UHGV virus genome: UHGV-0356621
From: a virus
Reading direction: 5' to 3' (one strand)
Length of the DNA: 43,895 nucleotides
Position numbers and translations under genes: made by a program. The notes beneath the pieces are model-generated. The model worked only from the letters and a program-made list of their open reading frames with translations, ran no database searches and was not told the origin of the DNA. Shown piece after piece: positions 1-43,895 of the stretch (positions are counted from its first letter, which is position 1; each line of letters starts with the position of its first letter).

Positions 1-166
1 TTTATTAGAAATTTGCACTTAAATCAAAAAGTTACGGACAATCCAACCACCAATCAATAAATTAAAGGGCACATTAAAGTACACAATATTTGTGCCCTTC
101 TCTGTTTCTTTCCCGTTATCAGCTAGCTGGAAACTTTTTATACAGAGTTGAGAGCCCTACTCCATA
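1..166. repeat. Terminal direct repeat, copy 1; matches 43730..43895 with 2 mismatches (positions 16 and 87)
   Basis: Direct comparison of the two window ends; both copies are cut by the window edge so the true repeat may be longer. Contains the invertase 3' end and a downstream hairpin AAGGGCAC-N19-GTGCCCTT. Confidence 0.9.
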
Positions 167-15527: not shown

Positions 15528-16101
15528 CTTTATCCCTCACAACATGGGTAATGGCTCTGCGGTATTGTCCGGTATCAATCAACGGCCTTACATTCTCATT
15601 GCTTATCAATTGACCAGAATCTGGGTTGATAGCATTAAGCTTTCCGTCTGCCGATCTGCGTGCTAACTCCGCTTTCGCCCCTTTACGCCCGCGACGCGCG
15701 CGTGCTTCAACGGTGCTATCAGCAAGCGGCGTAAAACCGGTAATGGTCATGTAACGCCTGACACCGTTAGCAGCCAGCGTACCCGCCTGGTTGAGAGCTC
15801 TTTCAGCGCCATCCGCATTACCATCAAGCGCAGCCTGCGCCGCTGCTTTGAGCTGCGGCACTGTCTGTTCCTCTACTGATTTAACGCCGGGGACCAAGTG
15901 CGGGCGTGGGGGGATGTTTTGCGCCGGTGAGCCGTATTCGTTGACGTAACCGATCCCGGCATTGCCAAACGGAACATCTTCACGCTCGCTGTCTTCCGAA
16001 GGGATGCCGACCAGCACATCCTTTTTGGTTAGCGACCTGAGCGCATCCAGAATGGCCTGAGCGTTATCCACCCTCGTTGTTACACCGCTTTTGAAACTCA
16101 T
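15514..16101 (-). CDS. Hypothetical head-tail adaptor protein
   Basis: 195 aa; ATG verified; overlaps the upstream stop (ATGA). Confidence 0.4.
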
Positions 16102-16517
16102 AGCTGGCGACCGCCCGCACCGAACATCGTGATCAGCTGATAAAATTCAGCGCCATATCGGGTGTTATTCCAGAAGCCCGCGTCTGGATTGAGTGTCATG
16201 CTGGTGTCATAGCTGACGCTAACCTTGTCAACAGACTTGGAGGACTGCACGCCATTGGTTGAACCACCCGGGCCACCAACCAGCATCGCCCGGCTATCTG
16301 CCGCCCAGAGCGTCATGTAGTGCGCCACGAACAACTCGGCAAAGTACGGAAACAACTTTTTGCCGGTGACGTTTTCACTCAGCAGCTCATCGGCCAGATT
16401 CAGGCGAAATTCGATTTGGGGATCGGGATATTTTGCCGGGTCAGCAAACTGCGGGAAGTCGCGCCGAAAATCACTTACTGTTGGCAGGCTTTGATTCTTT
16501 GACATCTTTCGCCCCAT
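16098..16517 (-). CDS. Hypothetical head completion protein
   Basis: Track start 16541 is TTG; ATGs at 16517 and 16505; assigned by position. Confidence 0.4.
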
Positions 16518-16839
16518 TACCGCCAGTCTGGGCGGCAGCAATCTGCGCTTGCAGGCCGTCGTTCTGCTCCTGCAGCTTGAGCAGCGCTTCTTTCAGATCG
16601 GCAATCAGCTTATCTTTATCGGCAATCTGCGCTTGCAGGCCGTCGATAATGGGTTGCAGATCATCGGTGTTGCTAATCACGCTTTCGGAAAGCTCAGAGT
16701 GCGCCTGGGTGAACCAGTGCGCCGCGACCTCTTCCGACACATTATGCCGCCCCCGGCCAAACTCCTGTTTTGACTGATCGCCGAGCGTCAGCGTAAACGG
16801 GGTGTGAACATGGATGGTAACCAGCTTTTCTTTCGCCAT
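16471..16839 (-). CDS. Coiled-coil structural protein
   Basis: 122 aa with repeated DGLQAQIA; the DNA carries a 23-bp direct repeat CAATCTGCGCTTGCAGGCCGTCG at about 16538 and 16622; AGAAGGAAA RBS. Confidence 0.45.
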
Positions 16840-16880
16840 TTTCAGTTTCCTTCTGGCCCCTTTCGGGGCCGTTCTGGTTA

Positions 16881-17822
16881 TCAGATACCGTCCACGTAGG
16901 ACAGGGTTTCTTTGTACACTGGCTCAACCGCACCGAGCTTGCCGTAGTAGGTCGCAATCTGGTACAGACCGCGATACTGGATAGGAACGCTCTGCAACGG
17001 CACCAGCGGATAGCGCACGTATTTCTTGTCGTTGGTGTAGGCGACCATACGGTCTTTACCGCCAACCCCGCGCCCTTTCAGCCATTTAACCGCTTTGATT
17101 TCCAGCGGAACGCCGTTCTGGTGGAAAGCGATAGTGTTCACGGCCAGATAGGTCAGCAGCGACTGGTTACCCGCTTCGGAAACCTTACGGCTCGCCAGCA
17201 GTGAATACTGCTCTGGCGGAATGCGCAGATCAGAAGGCACGACGGAATAACCGGATGCTGCCCAGGCATTCGACAGAATGCTGTTCACGCTATCGAGAAT
17301 CTCGTCGTTGGTGGAGTTCGCCCAGGTCTTCGGCGCATTGTTCAGCGTCACACCGACAAGGTTTGCCAGCCCTTTCAGGCCGAGCGCATCATCGCCAATG
17401 TAAACCTGCTCGTCGTTGTCCATTTGCCATTTGAGCTGCATCCCGTCGTACTTCTGGGTATCAATCGGGCGACCTACCTGCTGAGCTGCTGCCAGCTCTA
17501 CAACGGTCCAGCCCAGTTCCATGCCCCAGAGGTTCAGCGGATTGCCGTCTTTGCCGATATCAACATTCACGCCAGCAATAGCAGTGGAGTCTTTGCCTAC
17601 CCAGTTTTTACCGTTCGGATTTGCGCCAGTACCAGCAGCGCCAAAACTGGTGTTAGTCCAGCTGGAAATGTCATCTGCGATAGAAACGTCTTCACGCAGC
17701 TGAATATCGCGGGTCCAGGTGTAACCCACCAGCGGCAGGTTCAGCGTCTGGTCGAGTCGCTCCAGCTCCCCGATGAGAAAGGCACCAGAGCTATCAACGG
17801 TTGCCTGATCAAAAGTAATCAT
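16881..17822 (-). CDS. Major capsid protein
   Basis: 313 aa, the largest head ORF, flanked by scaffold-like and decoration-like genes; ATG verified. Confidence 0.65.
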   Translation of the reverse strand: MITFDQATVDSSGAFLIGELERLDQTLNLPLVGYTWTRDIQLREDVSIADDISSWTNTSFGAAGTGANPNGKNWVGKDSTAIAGVNVDIGKDGNPLNLWGMELGWTVVELAAAQQVGRPIDTQKYDGMQLKWQMDNDEQVYIGDDALGLKGLANLVGVTLNNAPKTWANSTNDEILDSVNSILSNAWAASGYSVVPSDLRIPPEQYSLLASRKVSEAGNQSLLTYLAVNTIAFHQNGVPLEIKAVKWLKGRGVGGKDRMVAYTNDKKYVRYPLVPLQSVPIQYRGLYQIATYYGKLGAVEPVYKETLSYVDGI

Positions 17823-18341: not shown

Positions 18342-19574
18342 TTATCCTTTGCGGTTAGACCAGAAGTCGGCGTTTTGTTTGTTCAGGGAAGCGATGCTGG
18401 TCATGCCCATATTTGGACGTTGTGCATCGCCCGTGGTGCTGCGGGTGTTTCGCCCTTTGGCAATCTCTGACACGGCGTTAAACGCCATATCTACCGATTG
18501 CTTGGGCAATTTGCGGATATCCGCATCACCGACAACCTGGCGAACCAGTGTTTTGTCAGCGGCGGACAGCACATCACGTTTGAACGCGGTCGGTTTCACC
18601 TTACGGCTCAGATCGATACCCGGAACGATAACTTCGGCACGATAAGCAGCGTCACCGGTAATCGTGGTTTCCTCTTCGTCGTCCTCACCGTCGCCGGTAG
18701 GGTCTTTGTTATCTTTGCCGTCAGGCTTATCGTCGTTATCGCCCGTTGCAGTACCTTCCAGCTTAGCCAGCAGGGCTTTGAGCAAGGTTTTGATATCGTC
18801 CTCGCCGTCGCCGGTTGGCTCTCCGCCCATTTCCGGCTTTTTGTCCGGCAATGGTTGCTGCGGTGAAAGGTTAATGTTGAGGTTAACGCCGCTCGGCAGA
18901 TCCACTTCGTCACCCGTTACCGCCGCTGGCGCAGAGTCCAGCAGTTCGTTCATGGTGTCAGCATCACCCGTTTTGATGGCCGTGCGCATGCGGGTCCACC
19001 AGCTTTTCTTTTGATTTGCCATTGTGTCTCTGTCTCCAATTGCACAACGATTTCCGGCTCTGCCTTTAGGGACAAGAGCCACATGGTTTCCGGTAATATC
19101 GACCTGCTCGGCTTTTCCGGGTTCGGTCTGCTTGTACTCAGCGTCATAGCCGCACGACACTTCGCGCAGACCATCTTCGATAAGCTGAATGGCGCTTTCG
19201 TCTTTGACGATAAGATCAGCCAGCATCAAATCAGACTGGTCACCAGTCCCGCGCCGCACGTTCTGAAGATGCCCGACAGCAAGCTCTTTCCAGTTCTCGG
19301 GATTTACCAGCCGCACATTCCCGTTTTCATCTTCAGGATGCAGGATCGTGATGCTCATCCCTTCGAATGAGGCGAGCGTGGCCGGATGGAATACCTGCTC
19401 AGGAGAGCGCGTTACGACTATCTCACCGAGCTTGTCGGGTTTGAGGTTTGGCAGATCGGCAGCGCCGTAGAGCTGTTTACCCGTTCGACCTATCGGCACG
19501 TCTTTGCACAGCAGCGAGCCGTCAGCCAGCTGATAACGGGTTTCCCCCAGCCGGGTATTGAAAAAATATTTCAT
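18342..19574 (-). CDS. Putative capsid scaffolding / prohead protease protein
   Basis: 410 aa with an acidic low-complexity central region (GDGEDD, DNDDKPDGKDNKD) typical of scaffolds; between the head morphogenesis and capsid genes. Confidence 0.45.
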   Translation of the reverse strand: MKYFFNTRLGETRYQLADGSLLCKDVPIGRTGKQLYGAADLPNLKPDKLGEIVVTRSPEQVFHPATLASFEGMSITILHPEDENGNVRLVNPENWKELAVGHLQNVRRGTGDQSDLMLADLIVKDESAIQLIEDGLREVSCGYDAEYKQTEPGKAEQVDITGNHVALVPKGRAGNRCAIGDRDTMANQKKSWWTRMRTAIKTGDADTMNELLDSAPAAVTGDEVDLPSGVNLNINLSPQQPLPDKKPEMGGEPTGDGEDDIKTLLKALLAKLEGTATGDNDDKPDGKDNKDPTGDGEDDEEETTITGDAAYRAEVIVPGIDLSRKVKPTAFKRDVLSAADKTLVRQVVGDADIRKLPKQSVDMAFNAVSEIAKGRNTRSTTGDAQRPNMGMTSIASLNKQNADFWSNRKG

Positions 19575-23122: not shown

Positions 23123-23762
23123 CACGACGAAGGCGATCCGCTTCCAGAGACACTTTGTCAGTGGAGGCGAGCCGATGCTCTATAGATGCCTTTGTGAATT
23201 CCAGCGACTCAATGCGGGCCGTGTTACGGTGCATGGCCTTTTCAGCAGAGGAAATCAGCGAGTGGAGTTCCTTCGCTTTGTCATCATCGGCCAGCTCCAG
23301 CTCAGCCTGCCAGCGCCCGATATTCTCCGCCGCCGTCAGATTCGCCGCGCGCAGCCAGAACAACTCATCGTCGAGCGTGAGCAGCTTCGCGTCTTCGGTG
23401 ATTGCGTCAGAGAGCAGCATCCTGCGACCGTAGCCGCCGTGCTTCAATGCGTTCTGATTTCCGGGTCTGGAATTATAATGAGCGCGTTTCGTTTCTGGTG
23501 AGTTTGATGGTTTTGCGACTTCGCAGTTATCCACTAAGCCCGCTGGTGGCTTACTCTTTGCCACTTTCTCCTTTTGCGAATTCGCAGTTTTATTCGCACT
23601 TTTCTTTTGCGAATTCGCACTACCATTCGCAATTTTGATATAGCGCTTTGCAGTCGAGTAATTCAGTCCCTGCGCTTCGCACCATTCTTTGGGGGAAATG
23701 CCGGTTTTGGCATGTTCGGACAGGAACCGTTGCTGAAGCTCGCCCCAGTCCGGCTTTGCCAT
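23007..23762 (-). CDS. terS: Terminase small subunit
   Basis: N-terminal HTH (KEWCEAQGLNYSTAKRYI), central NQNALKHGGYG motif seen in small terminase subunits, sits directly upstream of terL; AGAGGAAA RBS. Confidence 0.6.
   Translation of the reverse strand: MAKPDWGELQQRFLSEHAKTGISPKEWCEAQGLNYSTAKRYIKIANGSANSQKKSANKTANSQKEKVAKSKPPAGLVDNCEVAKPSNSPETKRAHYNSRPGNQNALKHGGYGRRMLLSDAITEDAKLLTLDDELFWLRAANLTAAENIGRWQAELELADDDKAKELHSLISSAEKAMHRNTARIESLEFTKASIEHRLASTDKVSLEADRLRRDAGVDDGNGDRDLNDFYSDIQTDPESGSKELLDDTGSK
23565..23640. repeat. Short direct repeats TTGCGAATTCGCA (x2) plus ATTCGCA (x2) inside the 5' part of terS
   Basis: Read directly from the sequence; encodes the repetitive ANSQKKSANKTANSQ segment. 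Confidence 0.7.
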
Positions 23763-26199: not shown

Positions 26200-26274
26200 T
26201 GGCGGGACAGGAAGGATTCGAACCTTCGACCATTCGGTTAACAGCCGAACGCACAACCGCTGTGCTTCTGACCC
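26200..26274 (-). tRNA. tRNA-like gene, putative tRNA-Asn (anticodon GUU), 75 nt with encoded CCA
   Basis: Minus-strand cloverleaf by eye: acceptor GGGTCAG/CTGTCCC (one T:T mismatch), D stem GCAC/GTGC, anticodon stem TTCGG/CCGAA with loop CTGTTAA, T arm GAAGG-TTCGAAT-CCTTC, discriminator G, CCA. Position 8 is A rather than the usual U. Confidence 0.55.
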
Positions 26275-38942: not shown

Positions 38943-38960
38943 TTTTTGAGGGGATTAACG

Positions 38961-39806
38961 ATGACAAACGAATTAACAATCACCGCGACTTCGCTTCAGG
39001 AAAAAGGTATCGATGTCGCTACCTGGAGCGCGCTGAAGAACAGTATCTACCCTGGTGCCAAAGACGAATCGGTAATGATGGCGCTCGATTACTGCCGTGC
39101 CCGCCAGTTGGATCCACTGCTGAAGCCCGTTCACCTCGTGCCGATGAGCGTCAAAGACTCAAGAACGGGTAAAAGCGAATGGCGCGACGTGGTCATGCCG
39201 GGCATCGGGCTTTACCGCATTCAGGCGGACCGCTCCGGCGATTATGCCGGGGCCCGCGAACCAGAGTTCGGTCCAGACGTAACTCAGACGCTTACTGGTG
39301 TAGAGGTGACTTTCCCTCAGTGGTGCAAATACACCGTCTACAAGCGCATGCCCAGCGGGGAGATCGTCGAGTTCAGCGCCAAAGAATATTGGATTGAAAA
39401 CTACGCCACCGGCGGCCGCGACACCACGGCGCCGAACGCGATGTGGAAAAAGCGCCCATACGGACAGCTGGCGAAATGCGCAGAAGCCCAGGCGTTGCGT
39501 AAGGCATGGCCTGAGATTGGACAGCAGCCTACCGCCGAAGAAATGGAAGGCAAATCACTGGACGTTGATATCCGTGACGTCACGCCGCGCAGCACCACAG
39601 AAGCGCTTCCACCAGCAGCAAGCGAAGAAACGCTTCAGGCCATCACCGATCTCTTAACATCGCTGAATAAAGACTGGGAGCAAGACTTCCTCCCAGTGTG
39701 CAGCGACATCTTCAAACGACCAATTCTTGAGGCGTCAGACCTCACTGAAGAAGAGGCACAGAAAGGGTTCAACTTCCTTCAGAAAAAAGCTAAGGCGGCA
39801 GCATGA
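38961..39806 (+). CDS. recT: RecT-family single-strand annealing recombinase
   Basis: ALDYCRARQLDPLLKPVHLVP...KDSRTG...IGLYRIQADRSGDYAG resembles Rac RecT; ATG at 38961 with GAGGGGA RBS. Confidence 0.8.
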   Translation: MTNELTITATSLQEKGIDVATWSALKNSIYPGAKDESVMMALDYCRARQLDPLLKPVHLVPMSVKDSRTGKSEWRDVVMPGIGLYRIQADRSGDYAGAREPEFGPDVTQTLTGVEVTFPQWCKYTVYKRMPSGEIVEFSAKEYWIENYATGGRDTTAPNAMWKKRPYGQLAKCAEAQALRKAWPEIGQQPTAEEMEGKSLDVDIRDVTPRSTTEALPPAASEETLQAITDLLTSLNKDWEQDFLPVCSDIFKRPILEASDLTEEEAQKGFNFLQKKAKAAA

Positions 39807-40423
39807 ACGCCAATCCACTTATGCCCGGTGAAAAATACGGGCACTTAACCGTCAAAGAACACTCGCACATGCTGAGAGGTAGAAGGATGTATCTCTGCCT
39901 TTGTGTGTGCGGTAATTCCTGCTATAGGGCCGCAAATCAGCTCAAAAACAACTCAATAAGCAGCTGCGGATGCATGATAGGAAAAAACTCCACTCATGGC
40001 CAGCGCAATACCCGCGTTTACAGGATTTGGAGCGGGATGAAAAATCGCTGCACAAACCCAAAAAACAAAGACTTCGAAAAATACAGTCAGCGCGGTATCT
40101 GCGAAAGATGGCTGACGTTCGAGCTATTTCTTGAAGATATGGGGCCACCTCCTACGCCTAAGCATCAGCTAGATCGGAAGAACAATGAAGGCCCGTATTC
40201 AAAAGAAAATTGCAGATGGGCAACGGTTACCAAGCAGGCGGAAAACAGAAGCACATCGTTTTACTGGTTTGTTGATGGGTTGCGTTTTGAAAGCGCCGGA
40301 GCCGCCGCGAATCATTTTGGCGTGAAATCAGCAACCATCCACAAATGGTGTCACGGCTACAACAATAGAGGCATTAACATCCCGCCAAGAGCCAACTGCC
40401 GTAAGGAGAGGAAATATGGATAA
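39803..40423 (+). CDS. HNH-like homing endonuclease family protein
   Basis: Cys cluster, then [13 protein letters not shown]....F.KYSQRGI.ICERW..FE.F..DMG and [21 protein letters not shown], a pattern I associate with free-standing phage HNH-type endonucleases; inserted between recT and exo with ATGA coupling. Confidence 0.5.
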
Positions 40424-41102
40424 CACGTGGCTCATTAAATTTGAGCAAATATTTGGGCCAATTGCACAAATTGAGCAAGGCAGCGAGACATGGGCAAGGG
40501 CGAGACTCGGAGTTATTACTGCCTCTGACGCTCACAACGTCATTTCCAAGCCTCGATCTGGCACCAAATGGACAGACATGAAAATGTCCTATTTCCACAC
40601 GCTGCTCGCCGAGGTATGCACCGGTGTAGCGCCAGAGGTTAACGCCAAGGCGCTGGCCTGGGGCAAGCAGTACGAAGAAGACGCCCGCACCCTCTTCGAG
40701 TTCACCACTGACGTGAAAGTCACGGAGTCTCCGATCTTGTTCCGTGACGAGAGCATGCGCACCGCCTGCTCCCCTGACGGCCTGTGCAGTAACGGGTTCG
40801 GCCTTGAGCTTAAATGCCCGTTCACCTCCCGCGACTTCATGAAATTCCGCCTTGGCGGTTTCGAAGCCATCAAGTCTGCGTACATGGCCCAGGTGCAGTA
40901 CAGCATGTGGGTGACCGGGAAAGATGCCTGGTTTTTTGCCAACTACGACCCTCGCATGAAACGCGAAGGCATTCACCATGTCGTCGTTGAGCGGGATCCG
41001 CAGTACATGACCGATTTCAACGAAATGGTGCCGGAGTTCATTGAGAAGATGGACGAGGCGCTGGCGGAAATCGGCTTCACGTTCGGGGAGCAGTGGAAAT
41101 GA
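40416..41102 (+). CDS. exo: Lambda-type exonuclease (Red-alpha)
   Basis: Very close to lambda Exo across the protein ([57 protein letters not shown]..., C-terminus [19 protein letters not shown]); AAGGAGAGG RBS. Confidence 0.92.
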
Positions 41103-42136: not shown

Positions 42137-42334
42137 ATGGATGATATTTTGGTAACGTCAGACCTGACCAGTCGCTACAAAATTTCACGCAAAACCCTTT
42201 GGTCATGGCAAAGTGCAGACACAATGCCTCGGGGCTTCGTATGCCCGTTCCCACCCCCTGACTGGCCCGGCAACCCTAACCGCTGGCGCTCTGAGTCAAT
42301 CAAAGAGTGGGAGGATAAAAAGAAGATAAATTAA
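42137..42334 (+). CDS. xis: AlpA-family excisionase / transcriptional regulator
   Basis: [24 protein letters not shown]...[10 protein letters not shown] fits the AlpA/Xis winged-helix pattern; ATG at 42137 after GGAGAGAG; convergent with int. Confidence 0.6.
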
Positions 42335-43524
42335 CTGAAGGGCTCTCCGATGATCTCTTCAAGATGGCTCTGCCAAACGCGGAGCCAGTGTTTCTGATCA
42401 TCGATATAGTCATGAAGGTTGTAATGCGCCATAACCCCCACCATCTGATGCCCGAGCAGCTTTTCAATTACGTGCGGCGGGCAACCTAACTCAGAGAGAT
42501 TTGTGGCTATCGTCCGCCTCATATCATGAAGCGACCACTCTGCCATACCTGTTCCATTCCAAATAGAACGGGCGTAATTGGATGCCACAGGTGAATGAAC
42601 GGGCGAATCTTTGATCCCGCCATCAATTTTACGTTGTGAAGTCACCAGGTGATTGGTGTTTATTTTCTTGAGGTGATTTCTGACCAGGTTAACGGCGGCG
42701 TCTGAGAGTCCCCTTCTAATATGTACCCGAGTTTTATAACTGCCCGCAGGCACGACCCACTCATTATCATCCAATCGAAACCATGATCTCTCACTAAGTC
42801 GAATCTCAGCCGTACGGCATCCGGTAAGCATAATAAATTTCACCAGGAAAACGGACTCTATCGACATATGGCTTTTCAACCACTGATAGATTTTGCGCAG
42901 ATCGTCATCGTCCATCCTGCGAGTTCTCTTTTTAGGCTTTTGCCCGACATCAGATGGCAGTAATCCCTCGAGTGGGTTTGAGGCGATCACACTTCTGTTA
43001 ACGCAGAACCTAAACGCCCGTTTGCACAGCGAAAGCATGTAATGAGCCATCACCCTGCTTTCTATAGAATCGAAGACGTTGATCCAGTGCATTTTCGCTG
43101 TGTTATCGACTTTGACATTCTTCATCGGTTCGGCGATATGTTTCTCAAACACCTGGCGATAGTAATCGACTTTAACTAGCCCGTTAGCGATACAGTGCCT
43201 TTCAATCCAGTAATTGAACGCTTCGGCAACGGACATCGCTTCCTGTCGGGTCTGCTTATCCAGCTTCACCTGCTCTCGCGGATCCAGTCCCTCAGTTAAC
43301 CAGTTTCTGAATTGTTGGCGACGCTCTCTTGCCTGGGTGATACTCATTGCAGGATAATCACCAACATTGAGTTTTACCGCTTTACCGGCCCAGCGATACC
43401 GATAGAAAAATGATATTTTTCCGGCCTGGCTGATTCTGGCGTTGAGCCCGTGCGAATCAGAAATAATCTCGATATCATCTCTTTTCTTGCCGAGCGCCTT
43501 CCTGAGCTTTGTGTCGGTGATCAT
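42331..43524 (-). CDS. int: Tyrosine integrase, P4-like family
   Basis: N-terminus [10 protein letters not shown]...[29 protein letters not shown] as in P4-type integrases; C-terminal catalytic region ...HDMRRT...LLGH...Y; start at 43524 is one of several possible. Confidence 0.85.
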
Positions 43525-43729
43525 TGAATGGGTACACATTTTTGTTTTTGGGTACACAAAAGTGTACACAAAGTTGCCCACTCAAAGCTACACGCAATGT
43601 AACACTAGTTCGCAGAGTGTTATGGTTTACATCCTTGAAAGCCTGCTGGATAAGGGTTTAGCGTAACAGAACGTTTTTACGCGGAATTGTTCGTAATATG
43701 CCAAATGACAATTTAAGAAAGTGTTCTAA

Positions 43730-43895
43730 TTTATTAGAAATTTGAACTTAAATCAAAAAGTTACGGACAATCCAACCACCAATCAATAAATTAAAGGGCA
43801 CATTAAAGTACACAAGATTTGTGCCCTTCTCTGTTTCTTTCCCGTTATCAGCTAGCTGGAAACTTTTTATACAGAGTTGAGAGCCCTACTCCATA
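43730..43895. repeat. Terminal direct repeat, copy 2; matches 1..166
   Basis: 164/166 identical to the window start; includes a truncated copy of the invertase 3' end running off the window edge. Confidence 0.9.

Follow-up and report, generated by a model that had tools for sequence, protein, structure and literature searches.

In the streptococcal M protein, blocks of heptads are gained and lost in frame by way of DNA repeats, the heptad register is kept, and near-identical strains differ in the length of the protein. In E. coli, short direct repeats lying close together also give rise, through replication slippage and sister-strand misalignment, to RecA-independent deletions and duplications with precise products that leave one repeat copy at the junction, and a 24-nt repeat at 84-nt spacing lies within the range in which such misalignment is efficient. 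The locus described here resembles the M protein in all these respects, and the E. coli events in repeat length, in spacing and in its precise products. It differs from the former, a bacterial surface antigen, in that the product is a 122-aa phage head-module protein with a 24-nt repeat present twice and no sign of immune or host selection, and from the latter in that the phage has an annealing protein and an exonuclease of its own, which could contribute. Repeat-mediated change of coiled-coil length with the register preserved is a known kind of event, of which this locus is a new and unusually clean example.

The 24-nt repeat, its gene and its phage

The window, i.e., the whole stretch of 43,895 nt that was analysed, is the genome or prophage of a SEN34-like temperate myovirus, and among sequenced phages it is closest to Citrobacter phage Omnitron (96%) and Salmonella phage SEN34 (89%). 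SEN34 itself is temperate and has the morphology of a myovirus, and its early region resembles that of lambda (PMC5261728). Besides an integrase, a CI-like repressor, a replication initiator and a recombination module, the window encodes a structural module on the minus strand, which runs from the large terminase through the portal, a MuF-like protein, a DUF2213 protein, a cement protein of the E217 gp24/XM1 gp53 type and the major capsid protein to a 122-aa gene, and continues with a head-to-tail adaptor, a Neck1-type protein, a small head protein and the neck terminator, followed by sheath, tube, assembly chaperone and tape measure. The features that concern us are the following.

16881-17822, minus strand: major capsid protein, the upstream gene (Pfam PF09950, E 1.4e-81; PDB relatives 8hdt and 7kmx)
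16471-16839, minus strand: STY1053-family gene (122 aa), comprising an N-terminal domain, a coiled-coil spacer and a basic tail
16690-16839, minus strand: conserved N-terminal domain, aa 1-50, four beta strands and one helix, with the motifs VHTPF and HWF..AH
16525-16668, minus strand: predicted coiled-coil helix, aa 58-105, seven heptads (DDLQPII, A, B, C, D, A, AAAQ..)
16622-16645, plus strand: repeat copy 1, promoter-proximal in the gene, heptad A, DGLQAQI(A), aa 66-73
16603-16623, minus strand: heptad B, ADKDKLI, one copy here, flanked by the 13-nt repeat ATCGGCAATC(A/T)GC at 21-nt spacing
16561-16644, minus strand: cassette A-B-C-D, 84 nt (28 aa), lost in 94-aa alleles and doubled in 150-aa alleles
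16538-16561, plus strand: repeat copy 2, distal, heptad A, DGLQAQI(A), aa 94-101
16474-16539, minus strand: Gly-rich linker and basic C-terminal tail, 22 aa, predicted to be disordered (pLDDT <50), also present in the coil-less 73-aa variant
16098-16505, minus strand: downstream head-to-tail adaptor, DUF4054/E217_gp27-type, 135 aa (Pfam PF13262, E 8.5e-27)
38946-41102: recombination module with a single-strand-annealing protein (38946-39806, phrog_2449), an HNH endonuclease and a RecE-like exonuclease (40416-41102)

The initial annotation had reported a 23-bp direct repeat present twice, about 84 bp apart, within gene 16471-16839, where it encodes a DGLQAQIA unit. An exact match search confirmed the coordinates (16539-16561 and 16623-16645), letters and spacing, with the identity running one base further, so that the repeat unit is the 24-nt sequence GCAATCTGCGCTTGCAGGCCGTCG, found in two exact copies (16538-16561 and 16622-16645) that start 84 nt apart. 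No third copy of the 23-mer was detected in the 43.9-kb window at up to three mismatches, copies arising by chance numbered 0.00 in 100 dinucleotide-preserving shuffles and, the 166-nt end repeat described below aside, the 24-nt repeat is the sole 100%-identical direct repeat of at least 20 nt in the window. The gene bounds and the peptide were likewise correct: both copies lie inside the 122-aa minus-strand ORF and encode DGLQAQIA at positions offset by 28 aa, i.e., four heptads, and the two copies match at all synonymous sites (24/24 nt). An inverted repeat in the same gene (I1, 16513-16530/16636-16653, 78% complementary) was judged to be a by-product of chance.

The product of this gene matches the NCBIfam model NF047914 (STY1053 family phage-associated protein) with 75.3 bits against a cutoff of 40 (E 2.9e-21; aa 8-49 aligned to model positions 1-42 of 42), and RefSeq gives its orthologues the same family name. 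It also shows a full-length match to phrog_2619, a family of unknown function (E 8.2e-42; aa 3-121 against profile positions 1-124 of 124), and the N-domain alone additionally matches phrog_6497, which corresponds to the coil-less form. In an AlphaFold2 monomer prediction based on a 24-sequence alignment, the N-domain contains strands at residues 6-11, 15-18, 24-27 and 30-35 and a helix at 36-48 (pLDDT about 75-89), and the helix at aa 58-105 is predicted with a pLDDT of 90-97. This predicted helix is heptad-periodic and contains both repeat copies, in agreement with the earlier proposal of a duplicated coiled-coil unit. In the best register the a positions are I, I, I, L, N, I and the d positions L, L, K, L, L, L, which places I, L, M or V at 10 of 14 core positions compared with at most seven in the other registers. 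Ile at a, Leu at d and a buried Asn are the textbook signature of a dimer, and this pattern, with the Asn at one a position, suggests a parallel dimer.

The adaptor gene, whose role is known from the structure of phage E217 (PMC10329688), begins at an ATG (16505) inside the STY1053 gene and shares with it the final 35 nt of the latter. The mechanically delimited adaptor ORF (16098-16541) would start at a TTG at 16541 and encode 147 aa, while the orthologues are consistently annotated with 135 aa, which corresponds to the ATG at 16505. A GGGG(C)G Shine-Dalgarno-like run sits in the GGNGAKD codons, and given this run and the overlap the conserved Gly-rich linker may be doubly constrained. On the other side of the gene, the intergenic stretch between the capsid stop and the STY1053 start (16840-16880) holds a perfect hairpin on the coding (minus) strand, GGCCCC-GAAA-GGGGCC (16855-16870), which is almost invariant across 84 related loci. 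It is followed by no U-run on the minus strand, and a terminator scan flagged the plus strand only; the hairpin may stabilise the mRNA or act as an attenuator, and in this way set the expression of the capsid gene relative to that of the genes downstream.

Several further elements were recorded elsewhere in the window. Both ends of the window (1-166 and 43730-43895) carry a 166-nt direct repeat, 99% identical, at a distance of 43,729 nt, and the integrase gene (42331-43581) lies close to the right copy on its inner side. The repeat could represent the attL and attR sites of a prophage; alternatively, it could be the overlap or the terminal repeat of a phage contig that is circular or terminally redundant. 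The DUF2213 gene (410 aa) carries a 22-nt imperfect direct repeat (86%; 18681-18702 and 18798-18819) with a spacing of 117 nt, equal to 39 codons, which may be a further in-frame repeat in a head-assembly protein. Within or upstream of an unannotated 251-aa ORF adjoining the large terminase gene there is a tandem 33-nt repeat, 85% identical (23571-23636, CTTTTGCGAATTCGCAGTTTTATTCGCACTTTT), with internal palindromic GCGAATTCGC-like motifs, and this may be a packaging or regulatory site. Finally, a tRNA-Asn (GTT) gene is present in the phage genome at 26200-26274 on the minus strand.

Heptad modules and length alleles

A protein search retrieved 128 homologues, the lengths of which step through 94, 122, 129, 136, 143 and 150 aa. 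A 164-aa allele is encoded in the complete chromosome of E. coli EC2001, and a 73-aa coil-less form extends the series below 94 aa. Comparison of the DNA of ten alleles (L001-L010) resolved the coil into modules of 21 nt, one heptad each: H0 (DDLQPII), A (D[GS]LQAQI), B ((A/V)DKD(K/Q)(Q/L)I), C (ADLKEAL) and D (LKLQEQN), followed by the tail. All coil-containing alleles are rearrangements of these common modules, as listed here.

94 aa: A
122 aa (the window): A-B-C-D-A
129, 136 and 143 aa: the 122-aa layout with two, three and four tandem B heptads, respectively
150 aa: (A-B-C-D)x2-A
164 aa: (A-B-B'-C-D)x2-A

The number of D-x-L-Q-x-Q-I units follows length, with one unit at 94 aa, two at 122-143 aa and three at 150 and 164 aa. 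The suggestion that the repeat could permit length variation, which the initial annotation had proposed to check by comparing copy number across relatives, was thereby borne out, since copy number is not invariant among the relatives. Two nested repeat systems, A and B, are therefore at work, both in frame and in heptad register. The B heptad, present in one to four tandem copies, constitutes a second layer of variation that the initial annotation did not mention and that is commoner than the first. Proteins that are 100% identical to each other in the 66-aa N-terminal part and in the 22-aa tail exist in five lengths, 94, 122, 129, 136 and 143 aa.

Several of these alleles are separated by a single recent step. 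The 150-aa allele of an E. coli prophage (L009) and the 122-aa alleles of three IMG/VR prophages (L034, L037 and L041) have flanks that are 100% identical over 1400 nt upstream and 1000 nt downstream, and the genes differ by a precise 84-nt insertion with no other difference across about 2.8 kb; a common prefix of 300 nt and a common suffix of 69 nt add up to the whole 369-nt shorter gene. Similarly, removal of exactly 105 nt from a 129-aa allele (L057) gives a 94-aa allele (L005), and insertion of exactly 42 nt into another 129-aa allele (L059) gives a 143-aa allele (L010). The junctions keep exactly one repeat copy. Moreover, four duplicated alleles (P0001/L009, P0002, P0003/L008 and L001) carry differing private substitutions (KD, RE, M, and R with B-B'), each of them in both copies of the cassette, indicating that the duplications arose independently, and 94-aa alleles occur on E. 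coli-type as well as on Salmonella-type backgrounds. The repeat thus leads to block deletion and duplication of the coiled-coil spacer in related phages.

Many of the homologues come from short metagenome or Logan contigs, and k-mer assemblers can mis-resolve exact tandem duplications of 84-105 nt, so that the length variants might have been produced by collapse or expansion of tandem repeats during short-read assembly. This is extremely unlikely, because the 164-aa allele stands in a complete E. coli chromosome and a 150-aa allele in a complete C. braakii chromosome, and the 136-aa allele agrees in two independent AW1.7 assemblies. In addition, the 94-aa protein P0073 was present on 24 contigs, each set of them obtained from a different sample, and the 24-nt repeat together with its 84-nt spacing is shorter than typical reads.

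A second alternative is that segments of the gene were exchanged between co-resident prophages rather than misaligned within the gene. These prophages are mosaic, some E. coli genomes hold two or three copies of the module, and the identity of the flanks is often unequal between the upstream and the downstream side, all of which would be compatible with such exchange. Nevertheless, exchange cannot yield a tandem duplicate with the recipient's private substitutions in both copies, and it offers no account of a lone precise 84-nt insertion in otherwise identical 2.8 kb; we therefore regard it as very unlikely. Unequal exchange at the A repeat between co-resident copies is a sub-case of the explanation that we prefer.

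That explanation, which we consider quite probable, is that identical A heptads misalign and so bring about the gain or loss of whole cassettes, in register, in the spacer of the STY1053-family protein. The 24-nt repeat would be the DNA image of heptad A (D-G-L-Q-A-Q-I), used twice around a four-heptad cassette, and because the copies are nucleotide-identical and 84 nt apart, the cassette could be removed or added by misalignment, most likely through replication slippage or when sister or concatemeric genomes recombine unequally. The single-strand-annealing protein and the exonuclease that the phage itself encodes may assist by acting on homology this short in the course of lytic replication. 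Slippage, RecA-dependent and phage-recombinase-driven routes would fit the alleles alike, and we infer both rate and mechanism from the comparison of sequences. As the products are all in frame and in heptad register, the helix would still be a working coiled coil, of a new length, and the 21-nt B heptad would expand and contract likewise. Deletion to a single A, as in the 94-aa alleles, would leave no way back by the same route, so these alleles could persist, and the 150- and 164-aa alleles contain exact tandem repeats of 84-105 nt, which would be expected to collapse easily.

Frequency of the alleles and lineages with diverged copies

With patterns that matched positive controls, no A-mediated deletion or duplication junction was found in the whole of IMG/VR, in which 212 relatives were detected. 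A-mediated alleles are therefore rare, and the common polymorphism is that of the B heptad, not of the 24-nt repeat. Among the best 80 of the 212 IMG/VR loci, a set biased to 122- and 129-aa alleles, 32 encode 122 aa, 46 encode 129 aa and two encode 136 aa. In a large protein database the 94-aa form is represented by 15 clusters and the 150-aa form by three singleton clusters. A scan of genome contigs returned 11 loci, too few for allele statistics. The exact A pair of the window is shared by just five of 84 compared loci, and in about 24 more the 21-nt heptads are identical. Irreversible loss of A on the one hand and easily collapsing duplicates on the other would explain the dominance of two-copy alleles.

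Recurrent and independent copy-number change on near-identical backgrounds, as observed here, is what marks a contingency or hypervariable locus, which raises the question whether the locus is selected as such, with the population sampling different arm lengths, for instance of a capsid-surface fibre or a packaging tether. In line with this idea, two repeat systems are nested in register, the phage encodes a recombinase of its own, the length classes recur on identical backgrounds, and the A copies of a lineage share substitutions (for example DSLQTQI...DSLQTQI and DSLQSQI...DSLQSQL). We consider a selected contingency locus highly improbable, given that A-mediated alleles account for 0 of the approximately 212 IMG/VR loci, that coil-less variants exist in viable phages and that the protein has no recognisable receptor-binding or surface identity; furthermore, neutral rounds of duplication and collapse can likewise be expected to leave the copies with shared substitutions. 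The length variation may be neutral.

Distant homologues provide a natural control for the proposed misalignment. Klebsiella phages of the Mulock type encode, at the same position, a 36%-identical homologue with the pattern RIAELEA-KIAEKDA-RIAELEA, whose A-type heptads differ at 3-5 mostly synonymous sites and whose length is 93 aa in all three genomes examined. In Hafnia phage yong1 the copies have diverged as well (DLQKQL...GLQNQL). The heptad pair is thus kept at the protein level in distant homologues, and the Klebsiella phages point to length instability only where the DNA copies are identical.

The retention of an A-x-A pattern in these phages despite diverged DNA indicates that selection on the heptads exists, and it could be argued that protein-level selection for the same heptad twice is all there is to the repeat, without any mutational consequence, the different lengths being the outcome of old, ordinary divergence. 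Such a reading is highly unlikely in view of the identity of the window's copies at every synonymous site, the precise cassette indels between 100% identical flanks of 2.4 kb and the nucleotide-exact duplicated cassettes with lineage-private changes in both copies. The lineages with diverged DNA copies, moreover, show no length variation.

In some relatives the gene is disrupted. The Apirhabdus apintestini gene (L014, 2501-2888) loses its frame inside the B-heptad tract, and coil-less versions in Shigella and in E. coli ECMA0423 (L019 and L020, 2501-2650) have an altered C-terminus and 81 aa as against 73 aa. These disrupted relatives are likely to be decaying prophages or slippage-induced frameshifts.

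The spacer and the STY1053 family

The 73-aa version, which consists of the N-domain and the basic tail with no coil between them, is found in the sequenced phage vB_EcoM-689R2 and in several E. coli prophages. In a search of 1.84 billion representatives the N-domain was found in 114 clusters, N-terminal in nearly all of them. Among 97 family representatives it is followed by 0-235 aa (median 60), in the form of a coiled coil, an Ala/Glu/Lys-rich stretch or Pro/acidic low-complexity sequence, and in 65 of the 97 the tail has at least three Lys or Arg in its last ten residues. Considering the coil-less form and this range of lengths, the helix behaves as a length-tolerant spacer between conserved ends; it appears to be a spacer of relaxed length between N-domain and basic tail, and it is probably a dimerising element as well. 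Four distant members (P0139, P0140, P0164 and P0173) have two STY1053 N-domains in tandem instead of a domain and a coiled coil, a hint that the presence of two N-domains in each functional unit may be the essential point. A SAP/HeH-type DNA-binding motif seen by eye at the C-termini of distant relatives (P0156) was dropped, as Pfam gave no support for it. Of 5426 complete E. coli genomes, 340 carry the structural module but just 104 a closely similar STY1053 gene, indicating that this gene is far more divergent than its capsid and adaptor neighbours and that coil-less and other variants take its place.

Searches for function by homology returned coiled-coil noise only, both among sub-threshold Pfam matches and in the PDB sequence search; the N-domain profile had no match in the PDB, and fold searches gave nothing significant. 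The label of head-tail gene given in the initial annotation is accordingly not established, as no match was obtained to a known adaptor, stopper or head-closure family or to a solved neck structure. As far as the data go, the product can at most be called a small head-module accessory protein, sitting between the capsid and adaptor genes, and it would be made along with the head-to-tail adaptor in head morphogenesis. A scaffolding protein was considered and rejected: the match to PF06810 (Phage_scaffold) scored 20.3 bits, below the 35-bit gathering threshold, and was confined to the coil (aa 58-109), the match to phrog_194 reached just E 0.009, and it is the 410-aa DUF2213 protein that holds the gene position of the putative scaffold of phage Pa193.

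Three phage proteins invite comparison. The DNA-packaging chaperone gpFI of lambda (PF14000) is encoded immediately downstream of the major capsid gene, with the head-tail joining genes following (gene order E, FI, FII), is of similar size (132 aa) and combines a small folded domain with a flexible or charged linker; no Pfam match to it was obtained at E <=10, and hhalign gave a probability of 1.6% with the full protein and of 0.07% with the C-domain. In myoviruses of the E217/PB1 type, an unassigned ORF (Pa193 gp27, PB1 gp25) occupies the same slot between capsid and adaptor, next to homologous cement, capsid and adaptor proteins, and Pa193 gp27 has been detected in virions by LC-MS, although it was not located in cryo-EM maps (PMC11456595). 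PB1 gp25, however, has no detectable similarity to the STY1053 family (hhalign probability 0.1%) and lacks a coiled coil. Fibritin of phage T4 is, like the present protein, a segmented phage coiled coil encoded beside neck genes, and it tolerates the removal of segments, but it is a trimer of about 487 aa per chain with a C-terminal foldon, whereas the a/d pattern of the STY1053 protein suggests a dimer, and no homology between the two was found.

By analogy with gpFI, and with the domain order reversed, the STY1053 protein might be imagined as a bivalent tether, its N-domain bound to the prohead or neck and its basic tail to DNA or terminase, with the heptad repeats maintained, helped by the annealing protein and the exonuclease, as a generator of arm-length variants for selection; we consider this combination very improbable.

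The finding overturns nothing known. What the locus offers is a compact natural example of repeat-mediated change in coiled-coil length, in which single-step events on otherwise identical prophages are accompanied by a built-in control lineage with diverged copies. For SEN34-like prophages in E. coli, Salmonella, Citrobacter and Enterobacter, the gene could be used for typing at a fine scale, and the allele series is a ready set for asking whether the length of the spacer matters. At the same time, the comparison sketches the anatomy of a widespread, uncharacterised family of small phage proteins, in which a spacer that can have almost any length lies between a conserved N-domain and a basic tail.
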